In this document: positions 3,486-62,296 of the stretch, piece after piece
Numbering within the stretch: the first letter of the stretch is position 1
Layout of the letters: every line of letters starts with the position of its first letter
Notes under the pieces: model-generated
What the model was told of the DNA's origin: nothing
The model's database searches: none
What the model saw: the letters and a program-made list of their open reading frames with translations, nothing else
Made by a program: the position numbers and the translations under genes
Source of the DNA: Hormiphora californensis
Lineage: Eukaryota; Animalia; Ctenophora
DNA length: 64,000 bases
Assembly: GCA_020137815.1 (NCBI GenBank)
Contig: CM035359.1
Span: forward strand, 2,418,001 to 2,482,000
Direction of reading: 5' to 3'

Positions 3486-5845
3486 TTACACGTTACCCTT
3501 TCCGTTACCCTTCATTCGATCAGCGATGAGTTTGGAGGAAAGGTTGGACATGATCGATTCGAATATCCGGGGGGAGACGTTGGAGGCGACGATCTGAAGC
3601 ATGTGCCGACCGCTCGTCCCGATGTTGAAGAACATGTGCTTGAAATCTGAGGGAGATGGCGGGGGTTAGGAAGGGGAGATTGGGAGAGCTGTAAGAGTCA
3701 GTCATGTACTTCTTCTTCTACGAGGACGCTGGCTAGTGCGAAGCACTAGCCAGTAAGGGGTGGGTACCATGAGGCTCCCGTTCCCCGTCCTGGGTGATGT
3801 GGCTGGTCAGTCATGTCAGTACATTCGGGGGATGGGAAGCTATAGGGTCGAGTTCGGCGAAGGGAGAGTGGAGACTCAGTCACAGTGCGTCACAGTTATA
3901 GGCTTCACAATCAACATAACGATTATCTAATAGTCCTTGTCCTTCCCAACCCCCCTCCTCCCAGATGCTTCATATATCACTAAATACAGCAGCATATAAT
4001 AACCCTCACTATAGTCCCGTCCCCTGAGGTCCCTCTGGAAGGTCCCTCAACAGACGGTTTCTATTAGTCTGCCGTGAGTCCAGCATTTCAACAGTCTGGT
4101 CGATTATTTTTTGGAACGATCGTCTATTAGAGTGTTCCGCAATTAAATGTAGTGTAAATCGACCCGTTGTCCCGCAGTTCTTGTATAGTTTCCAAAGGGC
4201 TGTGTTTTGTCGTTTAGTAATCGTGTCATTGTTACAGTTAGTTAGTTAATTAACGGCCAATTAACGGCCAATTAACGGCTAATTAAGGACTTACGGAGCT
4301 GATCCTTCAGGAAAGCAGATGCGAGAAGCCTCTTGTACGATCCCAGAACGAAGATGAGTTTGGTGAGTGCAAAGAGCACGCTCAGACAGTTACAGGCAAT
4401 AGTGAAGATAATGGCGAACCTGCACGTGTGAAAGTGGAAGTTAGAAATTCAGAATAGAAACAATCCTTTGAAGTTTAAAGAACAGGATAGAAACAATCCT
4501 TTGAAGTTTCAGTTAAGAATAAGATAGAAACAACACCTACCATAGGATAAGGAAGAGGTACTGGTTGATGACATTGGGGGCAAGGACGCACATTCCTTGT
4601 TCCTCTTCGATACCAGAAGGTCCCCACCTCTTGATCTCGCAAGCAACCATCTGGAGGGGATGTTGGTTAGAGTTCAGACTCTCTCTTATCGGTTAGATTT
4701 CAGACATAACTTTCGGTTTGTTAACACAACGAAATAATACAGCTGTATTTAGGACGCAACACACGTTTCATGGAATCCCTGACGGGAAACCACAAGATTC
4801 TTTCAATTTTGGAAATTTGCATACCTTGGGGAAGAGTTTATCCTTGACCAGTGTGGTTTCGTTGTCTCCTACGGGTAGTTTCGTGGCCCACTCAGAACCA
4901 TACGATACGAAGGATCCGATAGCGAACATCTCGTCGGTTAGGTAGAGAGTCATGATACTGAAATATAGAGAGGTTAGGTATCTCAAAATGATATCATTTC
5001 CATTTCCTAACAACTTGTGCAGACACTTCTTTTATTAAAAAAGGTGAAGAAAATTCAATTATATGAGCTAATTATTTAACTAATTAATTAATTTACCTGA
5101 TGATAAGATAAAGGACCTTGACAAGCATAACGATGAAAAACAGCCTGTGTTTCTCGGTCAGGAAAGCAAACATAGTGTTCTCATTCATGTATACGTTGAG
5201 TTTGTAGTACAACCAAACAGAGGCTTTCTCCGCCATACCGATCTGATCACCTGAACACGGGAAGAGGGATGGTTATGAAAAGGAGAAAAGGAGGATTATA
5301 CGTATGAAAAGGAGGTAAAAGTTGGGATTTATGAGGATTCGTTGTCTAGGATTATACGTTACGGGCATAGGCAAATTTATCGAATTCTTCGAATTACGGT
5401 TGGTGTTATTTTAAGTTTGCGTTATATAATATTAATATGTTGAATATGTTTTATGGGGATTATCATGAATTGCGCAAGATCCCTTTTCCTCTTCTTTTAT
5501 TTCTCTCTCTCTCACTCTTTCTTTTTCTCTTTCTCTCTCTCGTTCTCCCTCAGAAAGGCGATGATCGTAAACTCAATAACATCATCGAAAAGAATAGTGT
5601 CCATGACAACATAACGTGGTTCCCATGCTGCATCAATTCACTATCTCTCCCCCCCCCCTCTCTCTCTCTCTCTCCTCTCCCGGGGGACCCTATCTAACCT
5701 CATCTAACATTAGTTATGATCTGCCAATGACGCTTTATGTGATAATAATATGTGATGACACTATAATACGTGGAAAGTTTTAGGGAAGCATAGCCCACGG
5801 GTGTTGTGCAAGGTTGCAGAATGTCATCACTCGATCTCCTAACAC

Positions 5846-5877
<32 letters not shown>

Positions 5878-7481
5878 CTCTCTCTCTTTCTCTCTGCCTA
5901 TCTTTACAACCTTATTAAAATGCCCTTATCTCTCCCCCCATCTTGTGCAAAATATGTAAGGTCACCTTAGCAACATGTGACGCTCAACCAGCGAAGCATA
6001 TTATAAATGGGTTGTCTAGGTCTATCACAATAAGGAGAGGGTAGAGGTCTAGGTCGGGACACAACCGCGAATATATTTCAATCTAGCAATGTTTTAGGTG
6101 TATGTGTATGTCGTCTGGTAGACAGTGTTATGAGCTACGAAGACCTACGAAGTCGCTGGAAGTGTAACTTTGCAGCGAATTAAACAAAGTCAACAAATTT
6201 GCAGAAAGCTGCAAGATTTTGCAAATTATTATTAGTTACTGAGACACTTCATAGGTGATAAATCAGCTGCTGGAGACTTCTTTCTTACCTTCGTCCCCCT
6301 TTGGGGTTTTAAGGGAAACCTGTGGATGAGGGGCTTGAGGTCCCCAAACCCCCGAAATTTTTTTGTAAAGATGGGGAAAACGAAGGGGGGGGCGACTACC
6401 CAAAAATAAAGGGGAAACCCCCCACTGGTACCTGGGGTGGTACACTTTTAGGGGGGAGGTGGGTTTGGTTTAGGAAGGGGATTAGGGGCCCCCCGGGGAC
6501 CATGGGGGTAACTCTAAAGGGGGGGAGGTGGATGGTTAGGAAGGGATGGGGGAAAACCCACTGGAAAACCATAGGTGGTCCTGAAGGGGGAGGTGGGAGG
6601 GTTTAAAAGAGCTGTTGATTTTAAAGATTAAATAGAAAAAGGGGGGGGGAAACATCATGTTTAAACCTTGTTAGACCTTTGCCCTTTTACCACAAAAAAT
6701 TTAAAGGCCCCCCCCAAACAATTTTTGGGGGGCACAAAAAACCCCCCCCTTTCTGATGGCGGGGGGTTTTGGTGGAGCGGGGGGGTTTTGGTTTTGGGGG
6801 GGTTTGGGAACGTGAACCAGGGGGTTGAAAAGGGGTTTAAAGCATAGGGGAAGGGTTGGGGGGGGTTTTTTTTCCCCTTTTGGCATTGGGGGTGTTGCCC
6901 TTTAAAAGGGGCTTTTGGGGTATTGCCCCTATAGGGGTTTTTGTGGTAAAATGTCCCGGGGAAGTTAGATAAAATAGACGTAAAAATAATCATTGATTTG
7001 TTTCGCCCCCGTGTTGCCCCGTGGGGGGGTTTAAAAATCTGTGGGCCCTGCACTGTCTGACTGTCTGTGTGTTTGTCTGTCAGCGGTCCGTCTTCACCCC
7101 TCCCCCCACAACCACTGAGAAGGAGGGGATTTTAATGGAGAAAACCTGAAAACCAAACCCCCCAAAAACTAAAAAAGATGTTTTGGGGGAATGGTCTAAA
7201 ATTTGGCCCTGTCTTGGGTATTTTTTACTGGTCTAAAACTTTGAAAAAGGGCCCCCCTTCTCTAAAACTTTTTTTTTTACATTTTTTCTCAAACCCTCCC
7301 CCCCCTTTAGTGAGTCGGGTGATCCAATTCTTAATTCCTATTGGTCAAAGCAGTCACGTGACCATTTTTCTGCATTGTGATTGGATAACGGATAATATTA
7401 CATATAATGCTGCTCCAGGTGTGGGGGTTCCCGCCCCTTCTTTAAATGTAGGGAGAGATGCTACCCCCTGTTATGCAATTT

Positions 7482-7818: not shown

Positions 7819-10067
7819 TGTGGTTTCAGTACCTGGTAGGTGGTTTAACTAATTCAGGATCAGGACAGGCGATCCTTCCTCCGTTGATGAGTTCCCGTTC
7901 CATACATGGTGGTACCTCCTCAGGGATAATACCTGTTGGGATGGTTACCATGGTTACCGTGGTTACACAATGTAACCATGGTTACATACTGTGTGTGACC
8001 ATGGTTACTGAATCTTCTCAGCTCTCGGGCGACGCAATAAATCAGCAGAAGTTGACACGAGAGTACATGCTACAGCGAAGATAACAGCGGATCAGTTACC
8101 CTATCTCTCTAGTGTGGGAGAGTTACCATGCGGTTACCATGGTAACTGAATCATGACAATTGGTTTGGACCATGCTCTGTAGGTTAAAAAGGAGGCTTTT
8201 TTAATTACTCATTCATTTATCGACATTATATTTCCATGCGGTTCACATTTCCCGTGCTTTTTAATCATTCCAGTGATCATACCGATATAAATATATTTTG
8301 GTTACCTCAATATATCATGTAACCGATATACGTTTTGGTAACCCCAATATATAACATCACTACTTGGTTGCCATGGTTACCTGGATACGGGACGTGTTTC
8401 TCGAGCAGGTCATATGCCTCCAGAATGGTGTACAGACCCTGCGTCCAGCAGTAATCCTCCGAGAAGGACCCCGAGTATTTGTTAAACCCATCGCACGAAA
8501 TAATTCCTGTGTTAGAAAGGAAAAAGAGTAGCGCCACAGTAGCAAGAAAACAATAAAGCGGATGGGAGGGGGGTTTGGGGGATTGAGGGTATGTGCAATG
8601 TGAATTGTATATAGCGAGAGAGAGAGAGAGAGATGGAGAGTGTAGCAGACTAGTTAGCCGGTATAGCGTTGTAGTATCCATAGCAACGAGCCCTCCGCAA
8701 CCAACCCGGGTATGGTAAATCCTCAACTCGGAAGTCATACGCTTCGTAAACAGTGTACAAGCCAAGGGTCCAACAGTAGTCATTGGCAAAAATGTCATCA
8801 AAAACTCTAAACCCAATGCAGGATATGATGCCTGATCGGTGCATCGAAAGGGGAGTTGATCATGGTGTTTAGGGTGTTGTGGCCTAAACACTATAATATA
8901 GGGTGTTGTGGCCTAAACACCTTAATATAGGGTGTTGTGGATTTGAAATAAAGAGGAGTTGGTGGTGTTGGGGTATGTTTATGATGATGTGTTGCCAAGG
9001 TGGTTAAATGCAGCAGAAACAACGACAAGATAACACCTTTACAGCAAGATGAAGAGAACACATGTAAACTGCAGCACGATCTCCCTCTCTCTATCTCTGA
9101 ACAAGGAACCGACCGAAACAAGTAAACAACCAATCAGAACTCGTTATTTAGGTCACGTGACTGGTTATCAGCCAATAAGGGACCAGTATTTCCTGATTCG
9201 GTCGGTTCCTGCTCTGAACTTTCTTCCTCTCACACAAACCCGGATAAGGGATGTTATAGGAGACAAGATCGTATGCTTCAGAAACGGTGTAAAGACCCAG
9301 TGTCCAGCAGTAGTCCTCAGAGAACGTCGGGTTGAACTTGTCAAAGCCGTTACACACAATGATGGCTGTGTGTGGTGGTTGCTATGGTTACACTGCTAAC
9401 TCCATGGTTACCATGGTTACACCACGAACGGTTACCATGGTTACACCACGAACGGTTACCATGGTTACACCAAGGTTATATAATATGACAGTTTTTGGTA
9501 ATAGTAAGCTCAATACGTGTGAATTAGTGGAAGAAGGGAGGGGGAGGTTCTTGGGGGAAGTTAGTTTGAAACAAACAAGTCTTTCGAAAACATCGTGGTT
9601 TTTGTTTGATAAAAGATGCACATACCTCCGGCGTATTGTCGTACCGTTACGACCGTTCCCATGACGACACAGAGAACGAACATAAAACTCCTGTTTATTT
9701 GGTCCCATCCATCATCAAGTGTAATACCCTGGAGGGAGGAGATGGGTTAACGAGGGATGGGTTAACGAAAGGTGGGTTAACGAGGGGTGGATTAACGAGG
9801 GATGGGTCTAGGGCCAGGAGCTAGGTTCGCAAAATGGTAGCGAGAGAGAAGGGGCTAGTCTAACTCAGATTACGCAGGCTCTGGAAGAGGCGGGGGTTGA
9901 GTGACATCATGACAAAATAGTTAGTATCCTGTTATAATGATGATGACCTCATGTTATATGCTGACGTCATCACCTAGATAGTGACGTCATCACCTAGATA
10001 GTGACGTCATACGATGTACCTTGAACGGGGTTATTCCCTTGAATCCTGAGAGAATGTCCAAAACCAT
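3486..10067 (-). CDS. INXB: Innexin (gap junction protein), ctenophore INXB-like, with three alternative copies of exon 3
   Basis: Exons (GT-AG, phases consistent): 10067-10020 MVLDILSGFKGITPFK; 9728-9626 GITLDDGWDQINRSFMFVLCVVMGTVVTVRQYAG; one of 9365-9240 / 8831-8706 / 8506-8381; 7932-7833 GIIPEEVPPCMERELINGGRIACPDPELVKPPTR; ~6449-6289 (corrupted YQW/TM2 exon); 5250-5097; 4957-4825 ...KDKLFPK; 4650-4541 MVACEIKRWGPSGIEEEQGMCVLAPNVINQYLFLILW; 4419-4295; 3646-3486 ending ...KGNGKGNV-TAA. Innexin hallmarks are YCW, YQW, FPK and CVL..N..N...FLILWF. The symbol comes from recalled similarity to ctenophore innexins, not from a search. Confidence 0.93.
3697..3816 (-). mobile_element. 5'-truncated LINE 3' end with 11-bp target-site duplication, in the last innexin intron
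   Basis: GTCAGTCATGT at 3697-3707 and 3806-3816 flanks ~98 bp that match the LINE end at ~53069-53170, including the (GAA)n tail on the minus strand. Confidence 0.8.
8381..8506 (-). CDS. Innexin alternative exon 3c (extracellular loop 1, probable default variant)
   Basis: tttttcctttctaacacag|GAATT...TATCCAG|gtaacc; 126 nt, phase 1-1; GIISCDGFNKYSGSFSEDYCWTQGLYTILEAYDLLEKHVPYP(G). Confidence 0.92.
8706..8831 (-). CDS. Innexin alternative exon 3b (extracellular loop 1 variant)
   Basis: cgatcag|GCATC...TACCCGG|gttggt; 126 nt, phase 1-1; GIISCIGFRVFDDIFANDYCWTLGLYTVYEAYDFRVEDLPYP(G). Confidence 0.85.
9104..9210. mobile_element. Short MITE-like element with 14-bp terminal inverted repeats
   Basis: AGGAACCGACCGAA (9104-9117) and TTCGGTCGGTTCCT (9197-9210). 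It lies in the intron between exons 3a and 3b. Confidence 0.8.
9240..9365 (-). CDS. Innexin alternative exon 3a (extracellular loop 1 variant)
   Basis: cacacag|CCATC...TATCCGG|gtttgt; 126 nt, phase 1-1; AIIVCNGFDKFNPTFSEDYCWTLGLYTVSEAYDLVSYNIPYP(G). Confidence 0.85.
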
Positions 10068-21899: not shown

Positions 21900-24800
21900 C
21901 CTAATTTGCTTTTTATCCTCACCTTGTAGATAAGATAGGGGAGGAAGAAGGCGGCAGCAGCCAACCAGAAATAGAATGGAATCCACTGGTACCATAGATG
22001 GTACACTCGGGACGTTGTTGTTGGGACACCATCAGCACAATTTTCACCTATATTACAAGGGGTGTTATCATGGATATTAACACTATGGTTACCATAGTAT
22101 GTTACCATGGTTACCATTACCATGGTTACCATGGTATGTTACCATGGTTACCATTACATGTAGCTTCATATACACAGGTGCACTGAAGCTTCAAACAATA
22201 AGCTCTAAAGGGGTAGAAAGCTAGGGGTCAGTGACAGCATATAATTCCCAATACCATGCGAGGGAAAAAATAAGTGTTAGCTTCTGATATGGCGATGTGA
22301 TCACACACACACACACTTTCACACGAAAAAGAAAGAAAGATTCGAACTTTTATATTATATTGAGGACAAGAAGTTGAGGGTTTAAGCTAAGTTTATTGGT
22401 TCAATGAGTTGTGCATATAAGAGAGAATAATGGTCAAATACACATATCAGAGAATTGAGAAGATTTGAGAGGTATTGGATGGAATTGGTCTCACACTCAC
22501 GCTAGGTGCTAAGAAATGATCGGAATGGGATTGTAATGTTACCATGGTAACTAATTGCAATTTATTACCATGGTAACAAAAAGCACGGATATATATATAT
22601 CCACTAAATATATTTAGTGATTTATATGAAACACCACCAAGTTTAAACACCACCCCCGGCTTCAACCCCCCGCAGGAGAGAGAGAGGCATATCACCCGAA
22701 AAGTTCCCAAAAAGTATAGCAAGATGATACAGTCGGACCCCGGAATTCCTAGGTTTCGCTCGGTAAATCGGGGTCTGACTGTATAAGTTTATTCCAAAGA
22801 GACAAGTAAAGCGGAGAAATGAAGTATGAGAGCTGTGCGGCCTGAGAGGTAAGGCGCGTGCTCCAGAACTCACCAAAATATGACATTGAGCTACCCTCTT
22901 GGGTTTGATCTAGGGTGGAATCGAGATATATAATTGGGGTCTGAATGTTATTGGGATTGGAACTTGTTATGGTTTTGTGAGCTGTTTTTTGTAAAATGAA
23001 GTAGGTTTGTGAGGTGATGAAATACACAGAGTGGTATAACAGTAACACGCAGCGTTTTTGTACGCAGATATAAAAATGTCTAGTGACGGCTCTTTTTTCA
23101 AAGTCCGGTTTCTAATTGAGTCTAATTGGGGTTAAATTGCCTGCGTCAATCGGAGTACGAAGCTGGCCTGTTATACTGGTCTGAGTCTGTGTTCACTCTA
23201 ACACTTGTCGCGGAACAATTGAAAATGTGAAAAACGACCGAGACAGAAGGAGAGTGAGAGAGCTAGATGGAGATATAATAGGGATAGAGGGAGAGAGAGA
23301 GTGAGAGAACGAAGGATAGAGGTTTAAGGGGAATGGAGAGGGAGTCAGAGCTAGAGGGAGAGTGTGAGATAGGAAGACCTTGTTACGGACAGCAATATAT
23401 ATAAAAACACTCACCCAGGCAGAGAGGGACCTCCTCAGGGATGAGACCGGGGTAGGGGACGTGCATTGAGTTCTCGTTGTAAGCCTCCCTGATTGTATAC
23501 AGACCTGCAGGGGGCATGTGGTTAGTGTTGGAATGTGGTTAGTGTTGGAATGTGGTTAGTGTTGGAATGTGGTTAGTGTTGGAATGTGGTTAGTGTTGGA
23601 ATGTGGTTAGTGTTGGAATGTGGTTAGTGTTGGAATGTGGTTAGTGTTGGAATGTGGTTAGTGTTGGAATGTGGTTAGTGTTGGAATGTGGTTAGTGTTG
23701 GAATGTGGTTAGTGTTGGAATGTGGTTAGTGTTGGAATGTGGTTAGTGTTGGAATGTGGTTAGTGTTGGAATGTGGTTAGTGTTGGAATGTGGTTAGTGT
23801 TGGAATGTGGTTAGTGTTGGAATGTGGTTAGTGTTGGAATGTGGTTAGTGTTGGAATGTGGTTAGTGTTGGAATGTGGTTAGTGTTGGAATGTGGTTAGT
23901 GTTGGAATGTGGTTAGTGTTGGAATGTGGTTAGTGTTGGAATGTGGTTAGTGTTGGAATGTGGTTAGTGTTGGAATGTGGTTAGTGTTGGAATGTGGTTA
24001 GTGTTGGAATGTGGTTAGTGTTGGAATGTGGTTAGTGTTGGAATGTGGTTAGTGTTGGAATGTGGTTAGGGAGGGGGAGGGGGTGATATATGTAATGTGG
24101 TTAGGGGGTGCAGTGATAGGGTACGTGGTTACTGGTTAGGGAGGGGAAGGGGTGACATGGGGCATCCAGCATGTGGTTAGGTTTTGGATGGGGTGGTGAT
24201 TGGGGGGATCTCAAGCTGTAATAACTTTCGATATCTTAAGCCATTTCAATTCAGACTTTAGCAGGGGCGAAGAGACTAAAAGGGATATGATATATATGGT
24301 TTCATCTAAGCGTAGATTAATTATGAACGACCGGCGGCACTAATCACACCCCCTTATATAATAACTCCTCTTACCCACAACAAATGTGTGAATTTGTATA
24401 TCATCACCACCCAAATATAGAACTACTTCACCATTACTCAGCTAGGGAACACACCCGCGGCGCTCACTGTCATCTTAATATTATTAGCCCTGACCTTACC
24501 AAAGCGAAACTTGAAGTTTATTAGTCCTGGCCTTACACTTCAACCCATGACATAATGTATAGTAACCACTAACCTTACTACTGCCATTACATAATGTGAA
24601 ACACTTGACTTGAAACCCGACAAGCGGCCCACATGGTATTAGTCCTTACCAAACTTTCACACTATGTTTAAACAAAGTATGACAAAATGGTCAATATTTG
24701 TTTACACATCTACGAAATACATCACTACCCTATTATATAGATTATGATGTACAAACAAGGCTACTCCCCTTGTCAATTCCCGGCTCGAAATGTTCGCCAA

Positions 24801-38240: not shown

Positions 38241-38996
38241 TCAGCTGACGTTCATGCTCCTCAGTGCGGCATCAGTACTCATCCCGAACGTGTTTCCATA
38301 TCGGAATTTCTCCCCGGGAATGTGTCCGGTGTAGTGAGGTACCATCCCGGAGGCCTTGGGGTACACCTCTCTTCGGACCATGATGGGCCGGGCCACCACA
38401 TGCTCATTCGGTTGTTTTGGGGCAAGTTTCATGGCTGCTTGTCTCCTCTCCTGTTCCCTGTAATCGGAGATAGCCTGCTCCGTCATCTTAGGGTATCCCA
38501 TACTGATCTTGTTCCGGGACATAGGCAGGAACCCGGTATACCCGGAAATGTGGTAATCCACCCTGCTAGCGGCCCTCCGGCGGCCGACATAAGGCTCAGC
38601 GGGACCTCGGGCTGGTGGCAGGGGAAAACATCCCACCTGGACTTGTCTCATTCTCCTTCGTTCCTTGGCCTCCCTCGCCTGGGCGTCCTTGTAGTCACCC
38701 TTGGCGTGGCTGCATGCCACCACGTAGGGAAGTCCAAACCAGTTCTCTCCGTGGGGGATGTAACCGGTGTAACCAGGAACCAGGTTACTCCTAATCCTCG
38801 GGTGACTCTCCCTCACGGGCTCAATCTTCCGCAGAACGAGGTTACCGGAACTGATGTCATCCTCGGTTAGAATCTCGTGGGTTGTCTTGGAGAAAGTTCC
38901 CCCGATCTTGTACTTGCGTTGGGGGATGTAGCCACCGTACCCGGGGATGTGATAGGGAGACGGGGTAACGAGCGAATCCGGGGTAAAAGCTGACAT
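38241..38996 (-). CDS. FAM166: FAM166/CIMIP2-family ciliary microtubule inner protein (single coding exon)
   Basis: 251-aa ORF from ATG 38996 with four PGY-type repeats (HIPGYGGYIP, LVPGYTGYIP, HISGYTGFLP, MVPHYTGHIPG) and an N-terminal 'YKIGGTFSKTTHEIL' segment, both typical of FAM166. Confidence 0.85.
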   Translation of the reverse strand: MSAFTPDSLVTPSPYHIPGYGGYIPQRKYKIGGTFSKTTHEILTEDDISSGNLVLRKIEPVRESHPRIRSNLVPGYTGYIPHGENWFGLPYVVACSHAKGDYKDAQAREAKERRRMRQVQVGCFPLPPARGPAEPYVGRRRAASRVDYHISGYTGFLPMSRNKISMGYPKMTEQAISDYREQERRQAAMKLAPKQPNEHVVARPIMVRREVYPKASGMVPHYTGHIPGEKFRYGNTFGMSTDAALRSMNVS

Positions 38997-40308
38997 GGTG
39001 TGTGTGAATAGTTGCACGTGCAGGACACGGTCTTGTTGTTAGGGGTGAGGGGGTGGGGGAGTTTCGGGGAAATGGTGCTATCTGCACGTGCGGATGGGTT
39101 CAGGGGTTACTAGGGGTAGGGGAAGGGATCAGTCGCTGCTTGTAAGCTGTGATCCACATTGTGAACGTGGGCCGGGGGTTGAGTTGAGAGATCCAGGTTG
39201 CGACCGCCTTACATTTTCTTTTTTCAGAGTTCGGGGGGCGGGGGGGGGGGTGAGTTAGAAAAGTTGTTTCAATGAAAGACCATGGATTGAAACACCCTTT
39301 TAGGGATAATTAGAGAACTCGGGAAGCGGATTGAGAAGCAATGTATGCATATTTTGTGCTTTAATAAAAATGGTATATTTAAGTAAGAGTAGTAAGAGGA
39401 AGGGAATACCAACATTGAAAACTAGGGAATTGTTCGACCTTCTCTCTCTCTCTCCCTCCGGATTGAAGAACAAGGGTAACCAAGAGACGGAGAGAACTAG
39501 CTTGGAACTCGATGAGCCCAATTGACCAATTATTATATGACAAACCAAAATATCAAGTCTGATGATAAACTTAAAAATTGTAATAAGCAACACTACACTA
39601 AAACACCCCCATAATGTACTTACTGAGTCCCAGAATATTCACTGACCTCACGGTAAATATATTCTCCTATCCGGCCTCACCGAAAAGATCTGAGTGTGAA
39701 AGGAACCAGGTGAGCCCTGTTACACCACGTGATAGTCACGTGACCTAAATGACGCGTTGCTATTGGTTACCGTTGGATCATGTGCCAGTTGGTGGTCCCT
39801 ATTTTACACAAACACGCCACCTGGAGGCTGGATTTATATTCGCTGTTTCGAGATCCTCCATCCATCTCTCAGATATAACTTTCTTTCTCTCAGTATCCAG
39901 CCCATTCGCCGATGTCTACCCGCAGGAAAAGCAACAGACAGTGATAATAAAAGAAAACGAAAACCTCAAAAATATTCCTCTCAACCTCCCTCTCCCCAAA
40001 AAAATCATCGATCGGAAATTAAACGGAAAACACGATACCTGGAGAAATCAAAACGAGAGGGCCGAGGTAGTGTGTTGTTGCTTTCATTTGATGGACGGAA
40101 CCTGATACCTGTGTCACCGAGAGAGAGGGAGGACGATAATGACCTTTAACATTTCTTGGTGGAAATGGAGCCTCCTGATTGGTTGACATGGGTCACGTGA
40201 TACGAAATGGAGGAATGTGATTGGTTAGAGGACATCATGTAACGGTAAACCAAGAATACCCTGACGGTCACAGCTCAATGAAGAAGAACCTTGGGTTACA
40301 GCAGAGAT

Positions 40309-43888: not shown

Positions 43889-46800
43889 CCTCATATGGTC
43901 ATTTTTTTTTTTAACTTGTGCAAAATTTTTTCCGAAAATGACATAAGTTCAGTTTTTTCGACTTTTATCATAGTTTTTGTCAAAAAATATTATTTTCCAA
44001 CGAATATTATGTGTAAAAGTGTATAGGGAATAGATTTACAGGCAAAATAAATTAAAAACTCACCTCGTGAGGTGCCGGTGACCATGTTTGCAAAAGCGTG
44101 TGCCATTCCGTCAAATTTTAATATTTTTTCCTAAAATTTTCGAAAATATGCTGAAAAATGTCCATAATAAACACCATTAAAATATGTAAGCAAACTTACT
44201 CAATCTATGAGGTGCAACCGGTGTTTAAAGTTACACTGTATACTTACAGCTACTTTTAAGCCCGTAGCACCTCACGTTTCACGACTTTTCCTAGCTAGAT
44301 ACTTGCAGTAGACTCAAAACCATCATTTGTACCAAAAAAGTTCCAAAAATTTTGCTCAATGAGTGAGGTGCACCCAAAAAACTGTATTTTCTTCAAACGC
44401 TAATTGCACCTCACTCAGTGAGTATATAGTTCTGAAAGTGGCCTTAATTTGCTCATATGACATCCCCAAACACTACCTAATCGATTCCAAGGTCATTGCT
44501 CAACCTGTGAGGTGCACTGGAGAAGTAGGTAAAATATGTCATTTTTTGAGGGTCTGCACCTCACTCGCTGAGTAATTTTTAGAGCAAATTTTCGGTAAAT
44601 CAGGAGGGAAATTGTCTAATCTTGCTTTATGCCAAGTTTCAATTCTTTATTTACTCATTTGACCCCTAGTGAGTAAACTTTTAGCTCTAAAATCGGCTTG
44701 CACCTCACCAAATGAGTAAATTTTTCCATGGTTTTCACCTCATCTGATGAGTGAGAAATATCCCCACCATTTCTGAAAGTTTGGAGATTTTTGTGGATTT
44801 CTACAAACGGGGGGCCCCCAATACAATAGGGGCGTAAAATTTAAAGAAAAAACCCTACTGGGAGTAAGTAGGGGACTTCGTTTTTATAAATTGAACCCTT
44901 TTAAATTCTCGATTTTTTAGTTATAAATTTCCCAAGGGCCCAGCTTTTTGCTAGACATTTGAAAAGGTTTTGGGGAAATTTAAAAAAAAAATGACCCAAA
45001 AAATTTGGTTTGAGGGAGAGAGGAAGGGAAAGGAAAAAGAATGGAAAAAAAAACCTTTTAATTTTCAGGAGTGATTTTGAAAAAAGTTGAGAAATTTGTG
45101 GGGGGGAAGAAGGGTGAGTGGGAAAAAAATTTTGCAAAAAACGTAAATAAAATTAATACGGGACCTCTAAAACTTTCTTATTTTTGAACAACGAAGACTT
45201 GGAAGATTCCCTTTCTTTTTCCCTTTTGATCCCCCCCAGAGAAAAAACAAAACTAAAATTTTAAAAAAACCCTTAAAAAGATTTTTTGGGCCCGGGGGGG
45301 ACAAAGTCAAGTTAACATAATAAATGATGGTTTTTTCCCAAAGGGGGGGGCTGTTGAAAAAGGGAAGATTTGAAAAGAAGGGGAAGAGAGAGGGGGGGAA
45401 GAGAGAGAGAGAGAAGAGAGAGAGAAGAGAAGAAAAATAAGAAGAAGAGAGAGAAAGAGAGGAGAGAAAAAAGAGGAGAAAAAGAGGAAGAGGGAAGAAG
45501 GAAGGAAAAAGAAAGAAAGGGAAAAAAGGCGTTTTTTGGGGGGGAAAAAAAAAAAAAAAAAAATTTTCCCCCCGGGGGCCCCCCCCGGGGGGGCCTTTTT
45601 TGGGGGGCCCCCCCCCCCCCCCGGGGGGGGGGGGGGGGAAAAAAAAAAGGGGGGCCCGGGGGTTTTCGGGGGGGGAAAAAAGTTTTTGTGCCCCCCATGT
45701 TCTCTCTGTGAGCCCTGTGCATGTTGTTTGGGCCCAACCCACACTCCCCCAACAAAAACCATAACACAGATACCAACAACGATGAAATTGGAAATGGTAA
45801 AATATTGAACTTTTATTATAGGGAGGGGCCCCGTCCTGGGGGGTGCCGGCCTTATCAGAATGCACTGTCCTTTTGAAAACCGAAGCCAGATTTTGATACT
45901 CAAAACGAGGGTCAAGGTCAGGCGCCGCCAGACAGCTGCAGATAGGAGAATAAAATGGGAAGAGATGAAAAAAGATGGGACAGGTACAAACAAGTAAGAA
46001 CAGAAACTCCTACAGAGGGGGAAATTTACCAATTTCAATGTAACTTTAAAACCCCCCTTTTAAAAAAAAATTTTTGGAAATATTTTTTGGCTTGGGGTGG
46101 GGGGTCCCTTTTCCTTTTTTTTTTTTTTTTTTTCCCTCCCTTTTCCCATCCCTTCCCCTTTTTTTTATTTTTTTAAATTTCCCCTTTTTTTTTTTTTTTT
46201 GTTTTTTGGGGGTTTTTTATAAAAACTTTGGGTAAAAAAATTTTTTTTTTGGGGAAAAGGGGGGCCCCTTTCCTTTTTTTTCCCCCCCCCTTTTTTTTTT
46301 CCCCAAAAAAATAAAACCCGAAAAAAGGAAAAAAAAAAATTTAAAAAAAAAAAATTTTTTAAAAAAAAAAAAGGGGAAAATTTTTGGGGGGGCCCCCCGG
46401 GGGAAAGGGGGAAAAAAAAAAAAAAAAAAAAAATTTTTGGGGGGGGGGGGGAAAATAAAAAAAAAAAATTTTTAAAAAAAAAAGGGAATGGGGAAAAAAA
46501 AAAGGGGGGGGGGGAAAAAAAAAAAATGGGGGGGTTTTTTTTGGGGGGGTTTTTAAAAATTTTTTTTTCCCCCGGGGGGGGGGAAAAATTTTTTTTTTTA
46601 AAAAATGTTCAATTAAGCTACCCCCCCCCCCAAAAAAAAAAAAAATAAAAAACCCCCAAAAAATTTGGGAACCCCCTTTTTAGGGGTTTTAAAAAAAGGG
46701 AAAGGGGATATCCCATAACCCCCCGCGTAAAATCATTGGTCAGATAGTACCTTAATGGCATAATTGGTGGGAGCGGGGTATTTCGAGATATTGAAAATTG

Positions 46801-50894: not shown

Positions 50895-51059
50895 CTGAAA
50901 CACAATTTTCAGGCACTGATCATCGCACACACTGATCATCGCACACACAATTTTCAGGCACTGACTGTATCATCGCACACACACTACAAGAGGTCTCTAC
51001 GCCCGGTGCGGAGATAACAACATTGCAATTGGTCAGGTCTTTTGAAAAGTATGGAGCAT

Positions 51060-51540
51060 TCATAGTAAAGTCATATTCACCCACCGAAAAAACGTAAAAA
51101 TTGGAAACCCGATCAAAATACAGGGTAACCCAATCGAAGTGGTCGAATCCACAAAGTTTCTAGGGATTACCCTGGACAGCAAACTAAACTGGAACGAACA
51201 CGTAAACAAACAAATAAAAAAAGCAAAAAACATCCTAATGCAGTGCCGAAAAGTGGTGGGACCCACATGGGGACTAAACCCCAAAACGGCCAGATGGATA
51301 TACACAGCAATAGTAAGACCCACCCTATGCTATGGGGCAATGGTCTGGGCAAATGCGATGAAAACCAAAACAAATAAAGACAACATGACAAGAGTACAGA
51401 GGCTAGCACTCAAAATGGTAACAGGGGCCATGCCCTCAACACCATCAACAGCCCTCGACACAATCACAAACACCACTCCAATCACCGACCACCTGAGGTA
51501 CTGTGCAGCCAAAACTGCATACACCCTAATGGCAAGCTCA
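51060..51540 (+). mobile_element. Non-LTR retrotransposon (LINE) ORF2 fragment, end of RT and thumb region
   Basis: KFLGITLDSKLNWNEHV...WG...WIYTAIVRPTLCYG...RVQRLALKMVTGAMPSTPSTAL, characteristic of RNase H-bearing LINEs. Confidence 0.88.
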
Positions 51541-51870
51541 AGAGCTACCTTTTCAGCTATATTGACATCGACAATATTCTATAATTATTCCATCACCTTC
51601 ACCTTTTCACTTCATGAATGTTCCAATTGCTCACCGCTGCCGCTGCTGCGGGACACCCCTCTCCCCGTGGCTCCCCACCTCTCTAACTGTTAATCTAGTC
51701 TAGCAGCAACAACGATATATTTTTAACTTATTTACCTGTATAACTTAGCTACATTAAGAGGGGCTTCTTAAGTGCGGGATTCCTGCGTGAAGCCCTCAGA
51801 CGCACGGTGTGTGATATTATTTGATATTTAAAAATGCGAATTGTTTCCGTGATCGTTTGAAACTTCTTCC

Positions 51871-59159: not shown

Positions 59160-60453
59160 CTACTTGATGTAGCTGGAGATGGTTGTAGTTAGGATATGGA
59201 TGGCCTCATCCAACTGCTCATCATTAATACAAATGGGCGGTGTCAGCCTCACAATATCACCATGGGTAGGTTTAGCTAGCAAGCCCGCATCCCTCAACTT
59301 TAAACACACATCCCAAGCGTTGAAGTGCTCTGTTTCCCTGATCACAACACCAGTAAACAATCCCCGTCCCCGGACCGTCCTCACCACCTCCTCGGGCAGT
59401 TTCTTCAACTCAGCCATCAACTTGTCTCCCTGTCTCAGGGAGTTCTCGTATAACCCCTCGTTCTCTAGCACATCCATGGCCGTCATTGCCACTTTACATG
59501 CCAGGGGGTTGCCACCGTAGGTACTACCGTGTTCTCCGGGTCGGATACACAGCATAACTTCGTCACTTGTCATGACAGCCGAGACAGGGAGAACACCCCC
59601 CGAGAGAGCTTTCCCGAGGGTGACCATGTCAGGTTTCACTCCCTCCCAATCAGTAGCACACCGTTTCCCCGTCCTGCCCAACCCACTTTGAACCTCATCA
59701 GCTACCCAAAGTACATTGTACTTGTCGCACAACTCCCGGACACCCTTTAGGTAACCCATATCGGGGACTATCACCCCGGCTTCACCCTGAATGGGTTCCG
59801 CCATGTACGCACACACGTTGGGATCTTGTAGAGCTGCCTCCAAAGCGGCCAGATCGTTGTATTTGATCAGCTCAAAACCGGGTGTGAAGGGCCCAAAGTT
59901 GGTATAACAGTCAGGATCGGAGGATGATGAACACGCGGCAATGGTCCGGCCCCAGAAGTTGTTCTCCGCGAATAACACCTTGGCCTGGTTTTCAGGGACA
60001 CCCTTTACCATGTACCCCCACTTCCGGCATAGCTTCACCGCCGTTTCACACGCCTCTACCCCCGTGTTCATGGGGAGAAGCTTATCAAAACCGAAGAGTG
60101 ACGTCATGAATTCCTCATACTCTCCCAGGACATTGTTGTAAAACGCTCGTGACGTCAGAGTTAAGATGGGAGCCTGTTCGATCAGAGTTTCCACGATTCT
60201 GGGGATGGCAGTGACCCTGGTTGACGGCCGAGTAAGCTGCCAAGAAGTCGTAGTATTTCTTACCGTCTGTGTCCCATACATTCACTCCTTTGGCCTTTGC
60301 TAAGGCCACGGGAAGGGGTGAGTAGTTGTGGGCGCCGTATTTGGATTCCCGATCAAACAGGGCCTGTTGGGCGGGGGATGGAGCCGGACCTGAGCCCATG
60401 GACCGGGCCGGGAGGAGGAGGGAGGAGGTGGGCTTGAGAAGGTTCCGGTACAT
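59160..60453 (-). CDS. OAT: Ornithine aminotransferase, mitochondrial (intronless; one apparent frameshift at ~60201-60204)
   Basis: The ATG at 60453 begins [18 protein letters not shown] (presequence-like). It continues [11 protein letters not shown] and [16 protein letters not shown], then shifts frame to [53 protein letters not shown] (PLP lysine) and [11 protein letters not shown]. Confidence 0.95.
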
Positions 60454-62296
60454 GGCTATAATGGGAGAGCGATGGGTGTCAGTAAAAATCAAATCACATG
60501 AACAGCGGAATAAATGTGCCGAAATCGATACAAACGAACTTGAAACTGCCGTACACTGATGTCATAATATATCCGAAATATTCGGTGGTCGAAACAAAAT
60601 CAATAAAAGGAATGAACCCGGATGACACCTGTCAGGCCAATGCTCTGACCACAGTTCTCGCGCGCTCCGCGTGCAGAACAGGGTCAGGAGCCATTTGCAA
60701 ATGACGTCACGTTAGTGATCTCTGGGGATCAAAAGGGACGCGCAAATAGACGAACGCGCTTTTAAAACAGTAGCGCCGCGCCTGTATTGAACCCACTATC
60801 GAGAAATGTTGTCAGAAAAGTTGTCGGAACGTTTCAAAAAACTTTCCGAAAACAATCGACAAGAGAAAAAGTGGAGAGACGTCCGAACAACGATACCCAA
60901 AAAGCGTTGCAGTTTACATGATCATTGTTTGCGGTCTTCGTTTTGTTTCATGCTATGAATCATACTGTCCCATTGCATTTGCATTTAAAAACTCAGATGA
61001 TGCTAGGATGAAGCAGGTGGACCACTATACTATATGGTGGGAATGTGATCAATTGATCAGCTAGCGACACTGAGTGGGCAGGGCAGTCTGAAAAGCTCTA
61101 TTATCACTAGCTGAAGCTCTATTGATGAACAAAGAATGGTGCTGAGATCAGTGGGTTCAATACAGCAGTATTGTCAAAAAACTAATAGCAATTGTAAGCT
61201 AGAAATCTCGGAAAAGCTAAAGCAGTGCACACGAACTAAACCTAAACCAAAGAAAGATGCAATCGCTTGGATATGTATTATATTATGTGCGTTGTGCAAT
61301 GTGCAGTGATTGAATTACTGATTAATCAATTAGAGATTTCAATTGGAATCATGATTCCAGATGCAATTTCTAATTGGGAGTCAATCAGTCCTACTCGGGT
61401 GACAGTGTGCTGCTTACTGCTCCATACCACACATACCTCTTTTTAATTGGGTACTCAGATCATCTTGAGAGTTGAGACGGGGTATTGAGTGAAATTAGAA
61501 TGAGGCTGATGGAAACACGAGGACCTGGATATGATGTGTTATAGTGCAGCATATAATAATACTGAATTCAACTTTGTTGCGAGGAATTCACTCACTGCCT
61601 TACCAAGCTGAATCGGTTCAAATAGTGAGTATGAGGGGAGAAGTAAAGGGAAAAGGAGGGAGAGTGAAAGAAGAAATGAAGGAATAGTAGGGAGGGTTAG
61701 CCAAGAAGGAAAATGGAGGGAGGGTGAAGACAGGCATGTATAAGGGGGCGTGGGGGCCTTGTACAGTCATTGAATAGGTACCACTCCCTCACACTGGCTG
61801 TCGCTAGGCTTCTTGGCTCTCGTTAATCTTGCAAGCATGAGAACGGCTTCGGTTATCGGGGTACACCTTTTCTATCCCCCTTGTGAGAGAATATATATAC
61901 ATCGATCATCTTATCTCTAGCTCTCTCTATATGATCTCTCTATCTCCTCTCTCTCTCTTCTCTTCTCTCTCTCTCTCTCTCTCTCTCTCCATCTCTCTCC
62001 ATCTCACTCCATCTCTCTCTGCTCCGTGATAGGAGGGCCATTTGTGCCATATACATTATACAGTGTAGTACTTCAGGGCAAGGGGAGGTAGTTTTGCTGC
62101 CTTCTCCTTCACTCTTCTCAGGACTATTTCGATATTTTCACAACTATTTTCGCTACATAGTAGTAATTCATGGTTTTTTTCCACTTCTGACTTCACACCG
62201 TAGAAGCTCCATGGTCCTATGTTGGATTATAGATAGGATAGGGGATAAAATATAGGATACAGGTTGGATTTTAGAATAGAAGGAAGGATAGGGGAC

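Follow-up and report, generated by a model that had tools for sequence, protein, structure and literature searches.

How many versions of one gap-junction protein can a single ctenophore gene encode? The question is raised by a stretch of 64,000 nucleotides from Hormiphora californensis (GenBank assembly GCA_020137815.1, contig CM035359.1, positions 2,418,001 to 2,482,000; hereafter the window). Its minus strand carries an innexin gene, INXB, in which three consecutive exons (3a, 3b and 3c) encode the same part of the first extracellular loop (EL1, or E1). The three tandem 126-nt exons are likely spliced one at a time between exon 2 and exon 4, and the one INXB gene would likely make two or three versions of the channel. 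In this species 3a would serve as an alternative of low abundance or one confined to certain cell types, and 3b as a third, possibly lineage-specific, one.

The exons 3a, 3b and 3c are each 126 nt long and of phase 1-1, with CAG before and GT after them on the minus-strand sequence. Exon 2, with its phase 1 end at 9626, and exon 4, with its start at 7932, set the reading frame, and none of the three has a stop in it. The coordinates, length, phases, borders and motifs given in a first-pass annotation of the DNA were confirmed on the minus strand, and the 22 residues that it counted as invariant among 42 correspond to 22 of 41 whole codons; at the nucleotide level, 58 of the 126 positions agree in all three copies. 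Both E1 cysteines are present in each copy. The 3a peptide finds 3c (E 4e-18) and 3b (E 8e-15) in the window by tblastn and no fourth copy between exon 2 and exon 4. A tblastn search with the ortholog gave no second copy of any other INXB exon within the gene span, as the annotation had also held. A comparison of nonsynonymous with synonymous change among the copies, which it had proposed, gives pairwise pN of 0.22–0.29 and pS of 0.69–1.0. When the observed number of nucleotide changes was placed at random (20000 runs per pair), the observed amino acid identity was reached in none of the runs for 3a to 3b, 3c to 3b or 3c to 3a. The likeness of the three exons is therefore due neither to chance nor to neutral decay. 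The exons are tandem, homologous and equal in length and phase, with their own splice sites, which is the anatomy of a mutually exclusive cluster. The reading frame is kept under any combination of them, including exon 2 joined to exon 4.

INXB comprises ten coding exons, from 10067 to 3486 on the minus strand. A transcript in the JGI data (L007) encodes a product of 402 aa that agrees with the window translations wherever an exon can be read. It matches the Innexin family (PF00876) with a score of 165 bits, the cut-off being 25 (E 3e-48), and in PDB the INXB product matches INX-6 (E 4e-11). The Mnemiopsis leidyi INXB/ML25997a probe, in the supplement of Ortiz et al. 2023 (PMC9949713), reads as KAL5271279.1 (P0011). 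Since P0011 and the window protein fall into one 90% cluster, the gene is the ortholog of M. leidyi INXB. The proposed innexin identity thus stands and becomes specific. INXB of the window and of M. leidyi share 88% protein identity, with pS of 0.73 (saturated) and pN of 0.08. Three tandem innexin genes followed by a CMI2B-like gene give the order INXB-INXC-INXD-FAM166B-like, which is the conserved block reported in Ortiz et al. 2023 (PMC9949713).

The RNA data consist of four runs (X1–X4) as assembled contigs, which drop minor isoforms. The joints 4417>4539, 4650>4825, 4957>5097 and 7929>8378 lie on one contig per run in three of the four runs, from two studies, and the joint 8505>9625 is found in contigs of two of those three. 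The joint 8505>9625 (cut +1) corresponds to the end of exon 2 at 9626 and the start of 3c at 8506; 7929>8378 (cut +3) corresponds to the end of 3c at 8381 and the start of exon 4 at 7932. Together the contigs of the three runs give the order exon 2, 3c, exon 4 and on to exon 9, with GT..AG introns, and L007 shares the order exon 2, 3c, exon 4. In the contigs, exon 3c is spliced exactly at the predicted borders. A scan of the JGI data with the three peptides gave 14 transcript loci, all of 3c type or paralogs and each with exactly one unit; L007 is the one for the window protein. Exon 3c is the major form in this species. Since 3c alone stands between exons 2 and 4 in the contigs and in L007, joint inclusion of all three exons is not the case. 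In the junction mapping suggested with the original claim, run on contigs, the joints of exon 2 with 3c and of 3c with exon 4 were found, and 3a-3b or 3b-3c joints were not seen. Neither the 14 transcript loci, nor the RNA contigs (in which rare forms are lost), nor the two M. leidyi products described below include an mRNA with two units. The claim that the exons are used one at a time gains from the presence of 3c alone in all transcripts seen and from a one-exon swap of 3a and 3c in the M. leidyi annotation; RNA with 3a or 3b was not found. A 38-nt piece in X4 falls on the conserved core of 3a (84%). It is not 3a, as the sequence that follows belongs to another innexin (P0048/P0051 type). 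Between L007 and the window, 3–10% of exon bases differ, and more in the 3' untranslated region (UTR), with identical residues encoded by all readable exons. Because of this difference, L007 appears to come from a close but distinct lineage or haplotype, with silent changes alone in INXB.

Support for 3a comes from other ctenophores. In M. leidyi the locus ACHWQZ_G001800 has two annotated products, KAL5271279.1 (P0011) and KAL5271280.1 (P0012), both of 402 aa, which differ solely in 43 residues of the EL1 exon and have identical borders. The unit of P0011 is of 3c type, and that of P0012 is of 3a type (Ala start and CNGFDKF, like 3a). A paper on a chromosome-level M. leidyi genome (PMC11797021) describes alternative isoforms obtained by PASA from RNA-seq, and the KAL records may come from that assembly. 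The listing of the 90% cluster was covered for 15 of 47 members, and further isoforms may exist there. Exon 3a of the window is 75% identical to the M. leidyi unit of 3a type and 64% to that of 3c type; for 3c of the window the 3c type is the closer (88%, with 70% for the 3a type). The closest relatives of 3a, at 75–76% identity, are the exons of M. leidyi isoform 2, of Bolinopsis isoform X2 and of open reading frames (ORFs) in ENA. In the Bolinopsis microptera RefSeq product XP_063689470.1 (isoform X2, P0013), the 3a-type exon reads directly into exon 4. In the ENA genomic ORFs (P0044 and P0045/P0064), 3a-type exons lie between non-coding flanks. Conservation of the 3a type in relatives, on which the original claim had been made to depend, is thus found in all three sources, orthology being judged by best identity and the common signature. 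P0049 and three cluster members have units similar to the 3a type, for which assignment to INXB is not possible. A tree of the 41-residue units has one of 15 branches starred and is uninformative about the order of duplication. The 3a type is under selection, because its frame, borders and 75% identity survive where synonymous sites are saturated; at a pS of 0.73, an unused exon would not have retained frame, borders and three quarters of its residues. The duplication that gave 3a and 3c appears to predate the split between the window species and M. leidyi/Bolinopsis, with both copies under selection. We hold with good confidence that the mutually exclusive 3a/3c pair is real and old.

Exon 3b keeps an open frame, both cysteines, all 22 invariant codons and AG/GT borders. 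Its pN is 0.29 and its pS about 1.0 to either sister exon. In the alignment of the three exons, four residues of 3b are unlike both other copies, compared with three in 3c and one in 3a. The GC content at third codon positions (GC3) is 0.49 in 3b versus 0.61 and 0.68 in the other two copies. The intact frame, cysteines, codons and borders, the pN far below pS and the failure of all 20000 simulations to reproduce its likeness speak for past or present function of 3b under purifying selection, as far as the DNA itself can tell. That 3b is a third member in current use is a prediction to which we give somewhat less than an even chance. The annotation's third alternative is therefore upheld in part: 3b is intact and constrained, and neither an ortholog nor RNA was found for it.

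The splice signals of the three exons are unequal. Exon 3c has consensus-like sites, with a pyrimidine fraction of 0.82 and the donor GTAACC; the values are 0.50 and GTTTGT for 3a, and 0.68 and GTTGGT for 3b. All seven RNA-confirmed INXB donors examined have A at +3, and 3a and 3b have T. Because 3c has the best signals while 3a and 3b have GTT donors and poorer pyrimidine tracts, the strength of the signals would fit a default exon 3c with 3a and 3b as regulated alternatives. The introns between the copies are 408 nt (3a-3b) and 199 nt (3b-3c), so there is no steric block between them. Near-palindromic repeats of the type GTAACCATGG occur 12 times in the window (0.17 expected), with four copies before 3a, one occupying the opening ten bases of the intron that follows 3c, four before exon 4 and three in an INXD intron. 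All of these copies are in innexin introns near a splice site. The arrays before 3a and before exon 4 are complementary, with a duplex energy of -66 kcal/mol versus -30 +/- 4.7 for shuffles. Genomic ORFs of 3c type from three other species (P0004-P0006) lack the 3c-donor copy in their flanks, and the three copies in the INXD intron have no alternative exons beside them. For these two reasons, RNA pairing by the GTAACCATGG arrays is at best an improbable means of enforcing the choice. The 448-nt intron after 3c (7933-8380) contains four GCATG motifs (Rbfox-like; background 0.49 per kb); none of the four is a full TGCATG, and GCATG is absent from the other three introns of the cluster. The 3a-3b intron holds an insertion resembling a miniature inverted-repeat transposable element (MITE). 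Its inverted ends are 22 nt long and 86% complementary, and the palindrome CACGTG lies in its interior. Its depth in RNA contigs, whose flanks are unrelated, is in the thousands, so the element is a member of an abundant transcribed repeat family.

The unit encoded by the alternative exons is the first 42 residues of extracellular loop 1, from the end of the first transmembrane segment (TM1) to the PYPG motif, and contains both E1 cysteines. These align with Cys58 and Cys76 of INX-6, in a stretch of the alignment that is weak by itself. In INX-6 both E1 cysteines pair with cysteines in E2, a 19-Å pore constriction is made by the E1 helix, and E1 and E2 make up the junctional interface (PMC5146279). 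The first-pass annotation had described a Cys-bonded loop in EL1; in INX-6, according to the same paper, the E1 cysteines bond to E2 and not to each other, and this description has to be corrected. By analogy with INX-6, a doubled unit would bring in two cysteines without E2 partners, and double inclusion would be selected against. Skipping all three units would lose both E1 cysteines with the frame kept. The annotation had placed the variation in two blocks, the motifs of which are correct. Across orthologs, however, the stable difference between types lies between the two cysteines (CNGF-D/E-KF in 3a, CDGF-T/N-K-Y/F-S in 3c); the second block shifts among species and is nearly alike in the two M. 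leidyi exons. Because the INX-6 E1 helix constricts the pore and E1 and E2 form the interface, isoforms would be expected to differ in properties of the pore mouth and perhaps in which hemichannels pair. The first difference would be expected close to the pore mouth, in the stretch of E1 bounded by the cysteines; a difference in docking partners is no more than a possibility. An AlphaFold2 model from 27 ctenophore sequences was unusable for placing the variable blocks, with a mean predicted local distance difference test score (pLDDT) of 45.8, and of 26–33 in the loop region.

Several observations weigh against three working alternatives. RNA depth is zero over 3b in all four runs and over 3a in X1–X3, with contigs at both 90% and 80% likeness. 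Exons of 3a or 3b type are missing from all 14 JGI transcript loci, in a scan whose patterns would also miss the 3a-type exon of M. leidyi. As contigs lose minor forms, we regard the absence of 3a and 3b from them as weak evidence of absence. The Bolinopsis X2 model starts within intron sequence and gives no link from exon 2 to the 3a-type exon. The 3a-type units form no supported clade in the 41-residue tree. For 3b, no relative above 61% identity was found in a word-indexed protein search (two length classes), in JGI contigs or by exhaustive phmmer, which gave 24 matches among 1.84 billion representatives, the best at 61%. Exon 3b also has the longest branch in the unit tree (4.27) and is the sole unit with changes (K to V, E to N) at two positions where the 17 others in the comparison are identical. 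If there were no alternative splicing in this species, 3c would be the sole exon used and 3a and 3b would be conserved-looking relics, which would agree with the presence of 3c alone in RNA and with the weaker splice signals of the other two. We think this improbable: the 3a type is retained across species with saturated synonymous sites and is annotated as an expressed alternative in both M. leidyi and Bolinopsis, and an unused exon would not remain open and 75% identical over such a distance.

A more serious rival keeps 3a and 3c as a working exclusive pair and makes 3b a lineage-specific duplicate, either silent or a decaying pseudo-exon. The empty database searches and the lack of 3b RNA cover fit this two-way switch, as do the long branch, the sole changes at otherwise fixed residues, the GTT donor and the low GC3. 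Decay is harder to reconcile with an open frame, both cysteines, AG/GT borders and 22 invariant codons all intact, with a pN so far under pS and with the neutral simulations, none of which matches. Nor does the 3b protein evolve much faster than its sisters, as judged by the private residues counted above. The searches are weak tests, since the genomic ORF of the known 3a-type exon in M. leidyi escaped them too. On balance, the two-way switch seems rather unlikely. The exons could also be cassettes that are not strictly exclusive, with transcripts containing two copies or none also occurring and mattering. A length of 126 nt preserves the frame in any combination, the 408- and 199-nt introns are long enough to splice, and INXA of M. 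leidyi, as printed by Ortiz et al. 2023, is without the corresponding stretch, which is present in the INXA-like P0052. Both M. leidyi isoforms are of 402 aa, however, all 14 transcript loci have exactly one unit, and a doubled unit would add the unpaired cysteines predicted from INX-6; we consider cassette use very improbable. The wider form of the reading of three exclusive alternatives, in which three loop versions made by mutually exclusive splicing are older than the split of the living ctenophore lineages and cell types use them for a choice of coupling or for rectifying junctions, is doubtful.

Table 1. Exons of INXB, neighbouring genes and repeats in the window (positions are those of the window)
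Feature	Position	Strand	Description and evidence
INXB exon 1, coding part	10020..10067	-	ATG at 10067, 16 codons; tblastn of P0011, blastn of L007
INXB exon 2	9626..9728	-	End of N-terminal part and TM1, ends in phase 1; RNA contig pieces 9625-9730, joint to 3c
INXB exon 3a	9240..9365	-	Alternative EL1 exon, 3a type; Ala start, signature CNGFDKF; weak splice sites; sequence, codon alignment, simulations
INXB exon 3b	8706..8831	-	Predicted third alternative EL1 exon; most divergent copy; sequence, pN/pS, simulations
INXB exon 3c	8381..8506	-	EL1 exon in every transcript seen; strongest splice sites; RNA joints in runs X1, X2 and X3, transcript L007
INXB exon 4	7833..7932	-	Rest of EL1, two more cysteines; sequence, RNA contigs, tblastn
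INXB exon 5 (TM2)	6289..6446, approximate	-	147 nt in mRNA; garbled by inflated homopolymer runs; blastn 73%, 8 gaps
INXB exon 6	5097..5252	-	RNA contigs, tblastn, blastn
INXB exon 7	4825..4957	-	RNA contigs, tblastn, blastn
INXB exon 8	4541..4650	-	RNA contigs, tblastn, blastn
INXB exon 9	4295..4419	-	RNA contigs, tblastn, blastn
INXB exon 10, coding part and stop	3486..3646	-	3' UTR on to about 2005; tblastn, blastn
GTAACCATGG-type near-palindromic repeat array	9370..9480	-	Just upstream of 3a
GTAACCATGG-type repeat array	7936..8014	-	Just upstream of exon 4
GTAACCATGG-type single copies	8359-8380 and 8125-8155		First at intron start after 3c
GTAACCATGG-type copies	22105-22151		In INXD intron
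MITE-like insertion	9104..9213	.	110 nt, in 3a-3b intron, CTCTGAAC on both sides
Two more innexin genes	15296-12610 and about 25081-20525	-	Upstream of INXB on its strand; tblastn
CMI2B/FAM166B-like gene	38241-39038		PF10629

Exon 5 is garbled in the window, in a patch (about 6250-7300) where the density of homopolymer runs is three to four times the window mean. In each RNA contig the 147 nt between exons 4 and 6 that are unplaced are the TM2 exon. As the RNA contigs and L007 show this exon intact, the garbled exon 5 is an assembly fault and not a broken gene. Homopolymer-inflated patches at 6250-7300 and about 45100-46700 have 17–26 runs of at least 4 bases per 250 nt (window mean 6.0), the second patch being judged from ORF translations alone; they look like uncorrected low-quality assembly sequence. 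In the middle innexin gene the EL1 unit is a separate exon in single copy (15002-14916). In the INXD-type gene (25081-24893, 23505-23416) the ends of the exon-3 unit are not marked by introns; one intron falls inside the unit, after WTQG. Since the INXD-type gene splits the unit elsewhere, the EL1 unit is a separate exon only in INXB and the middle gene. Elsewhere in the window are an intron-poor class III aminotransferase gene on the minus strand (59160-60561; PF00202, E 3e-98) and an open frame of 215 aa (51046-51693) that looks like a reverse-transcriptase fragment and has no Pfam match.

An ENA contig outside the window (P0047, a ctenophore innexin paralog of P0010 type) has two tandem EL1 exon copies in one open frame. 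The copies span DYCW to beyond PYPG; only some 15 codons separate them, among which are donor-like and acceptor-like ones. P0047 could be another innexin gene in which the EL1 exon is duplicated, and its spacer is perhaps too short to splice. In the M. leidyi INXA sequence, as given in the Ortiz 2023 supplement (PMC9949713), TM1 runs directly to LLPEDAPPC and about 50 residues are missing, including the EL1 unit and both cysteines. P0052 (406 aa) otherwise matches M. leidyi INXA and has those residues. The gap is either a gene model with a skipped exon or a real skipped form.

The nearest counterpart is M. leidyi INXB itself (ML25997a; KAL5271279.1/KAL5271280.1), which is like the window gene in orthology (88% protein identity), gene block and the swap of the 3c and 3a exons and differs in that only two exon types, and no 3b type, are recorded. 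The M. leidyi probe of PMC9949713 is the 3c form. The letters "splic" and "exon" do not occur in the text of Ortiz et al. 2023 (PMC9949713) as searched, and the literature searched on innexin splicing and on ctenophore or Mnemiopsis exons gave no description of these alternative loop exons. The annotation's view that they are undescribed holds for that literature, but public records (GenBank, RefSeq) already contain the two isoforms. The closest functional analogue is Drosophila shaking-B, likewise one innexin gene with products differing in E1. According to PMC2663713 and PMC5412853, its Neural+16 and Lethal forms differ in the first third of the protein, including E1, are found in different cells and form heterotypic rectifying junctions. 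The shaking-B transcripts are nested and partially identical, and the N-terminus and TM1 vary too, whereas INXB swaps an internal exon for the first 42 E1 residues only. A mutually exclusive exon cluster has been predicted in M. leidyi muscle myosin Mhc2 (PMC3912159). Like INXB, the Mhc2 and Dscam1 clusters have tandem homologous exons of common length and phase; one is used per mRNA in such clusters, and probably in INXB. In Drosophila Dscam1 the arrays are large (tens of variants), the choice is made via pairing between docking-site and selector RNA, and an adhesion domain varies. INXB has three variants and a varying channel loop, with docking/selector pairing improbable. The label Dscam-like used in the annotation is therefore overstated: two to three variants are an ordinary mutually exclusive exon cluster, and the repeat copy at the 3c donor is not conserved. 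Taken as a whole, the annotation's interpretation is partly supported.

The interest of the finding lies in the fact that INXB is the main ctenophore gap-junction gene. INXB is one of the two most highly expressed Mnemiopsis innexins and is found in epithelial, digestive, muscle and putative neural clusters (PMC9949713). In that study INXB is treated as one protein, with a probe that cannot separate isoforms. Should the exon swap prove real and differ between cell types, then INXB expression maps, co-expression counts and future channel recordings would mix two or three channels that have different outer loops. It would also be a compact case of one innexin gene tuning pore or docking without change of the N-terminus, unlike shaking-B. 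If the three-version reading is true, it would amount to a splicing-based wiring code for electrical coupling, in a lineage with an independently evolved innexin family.

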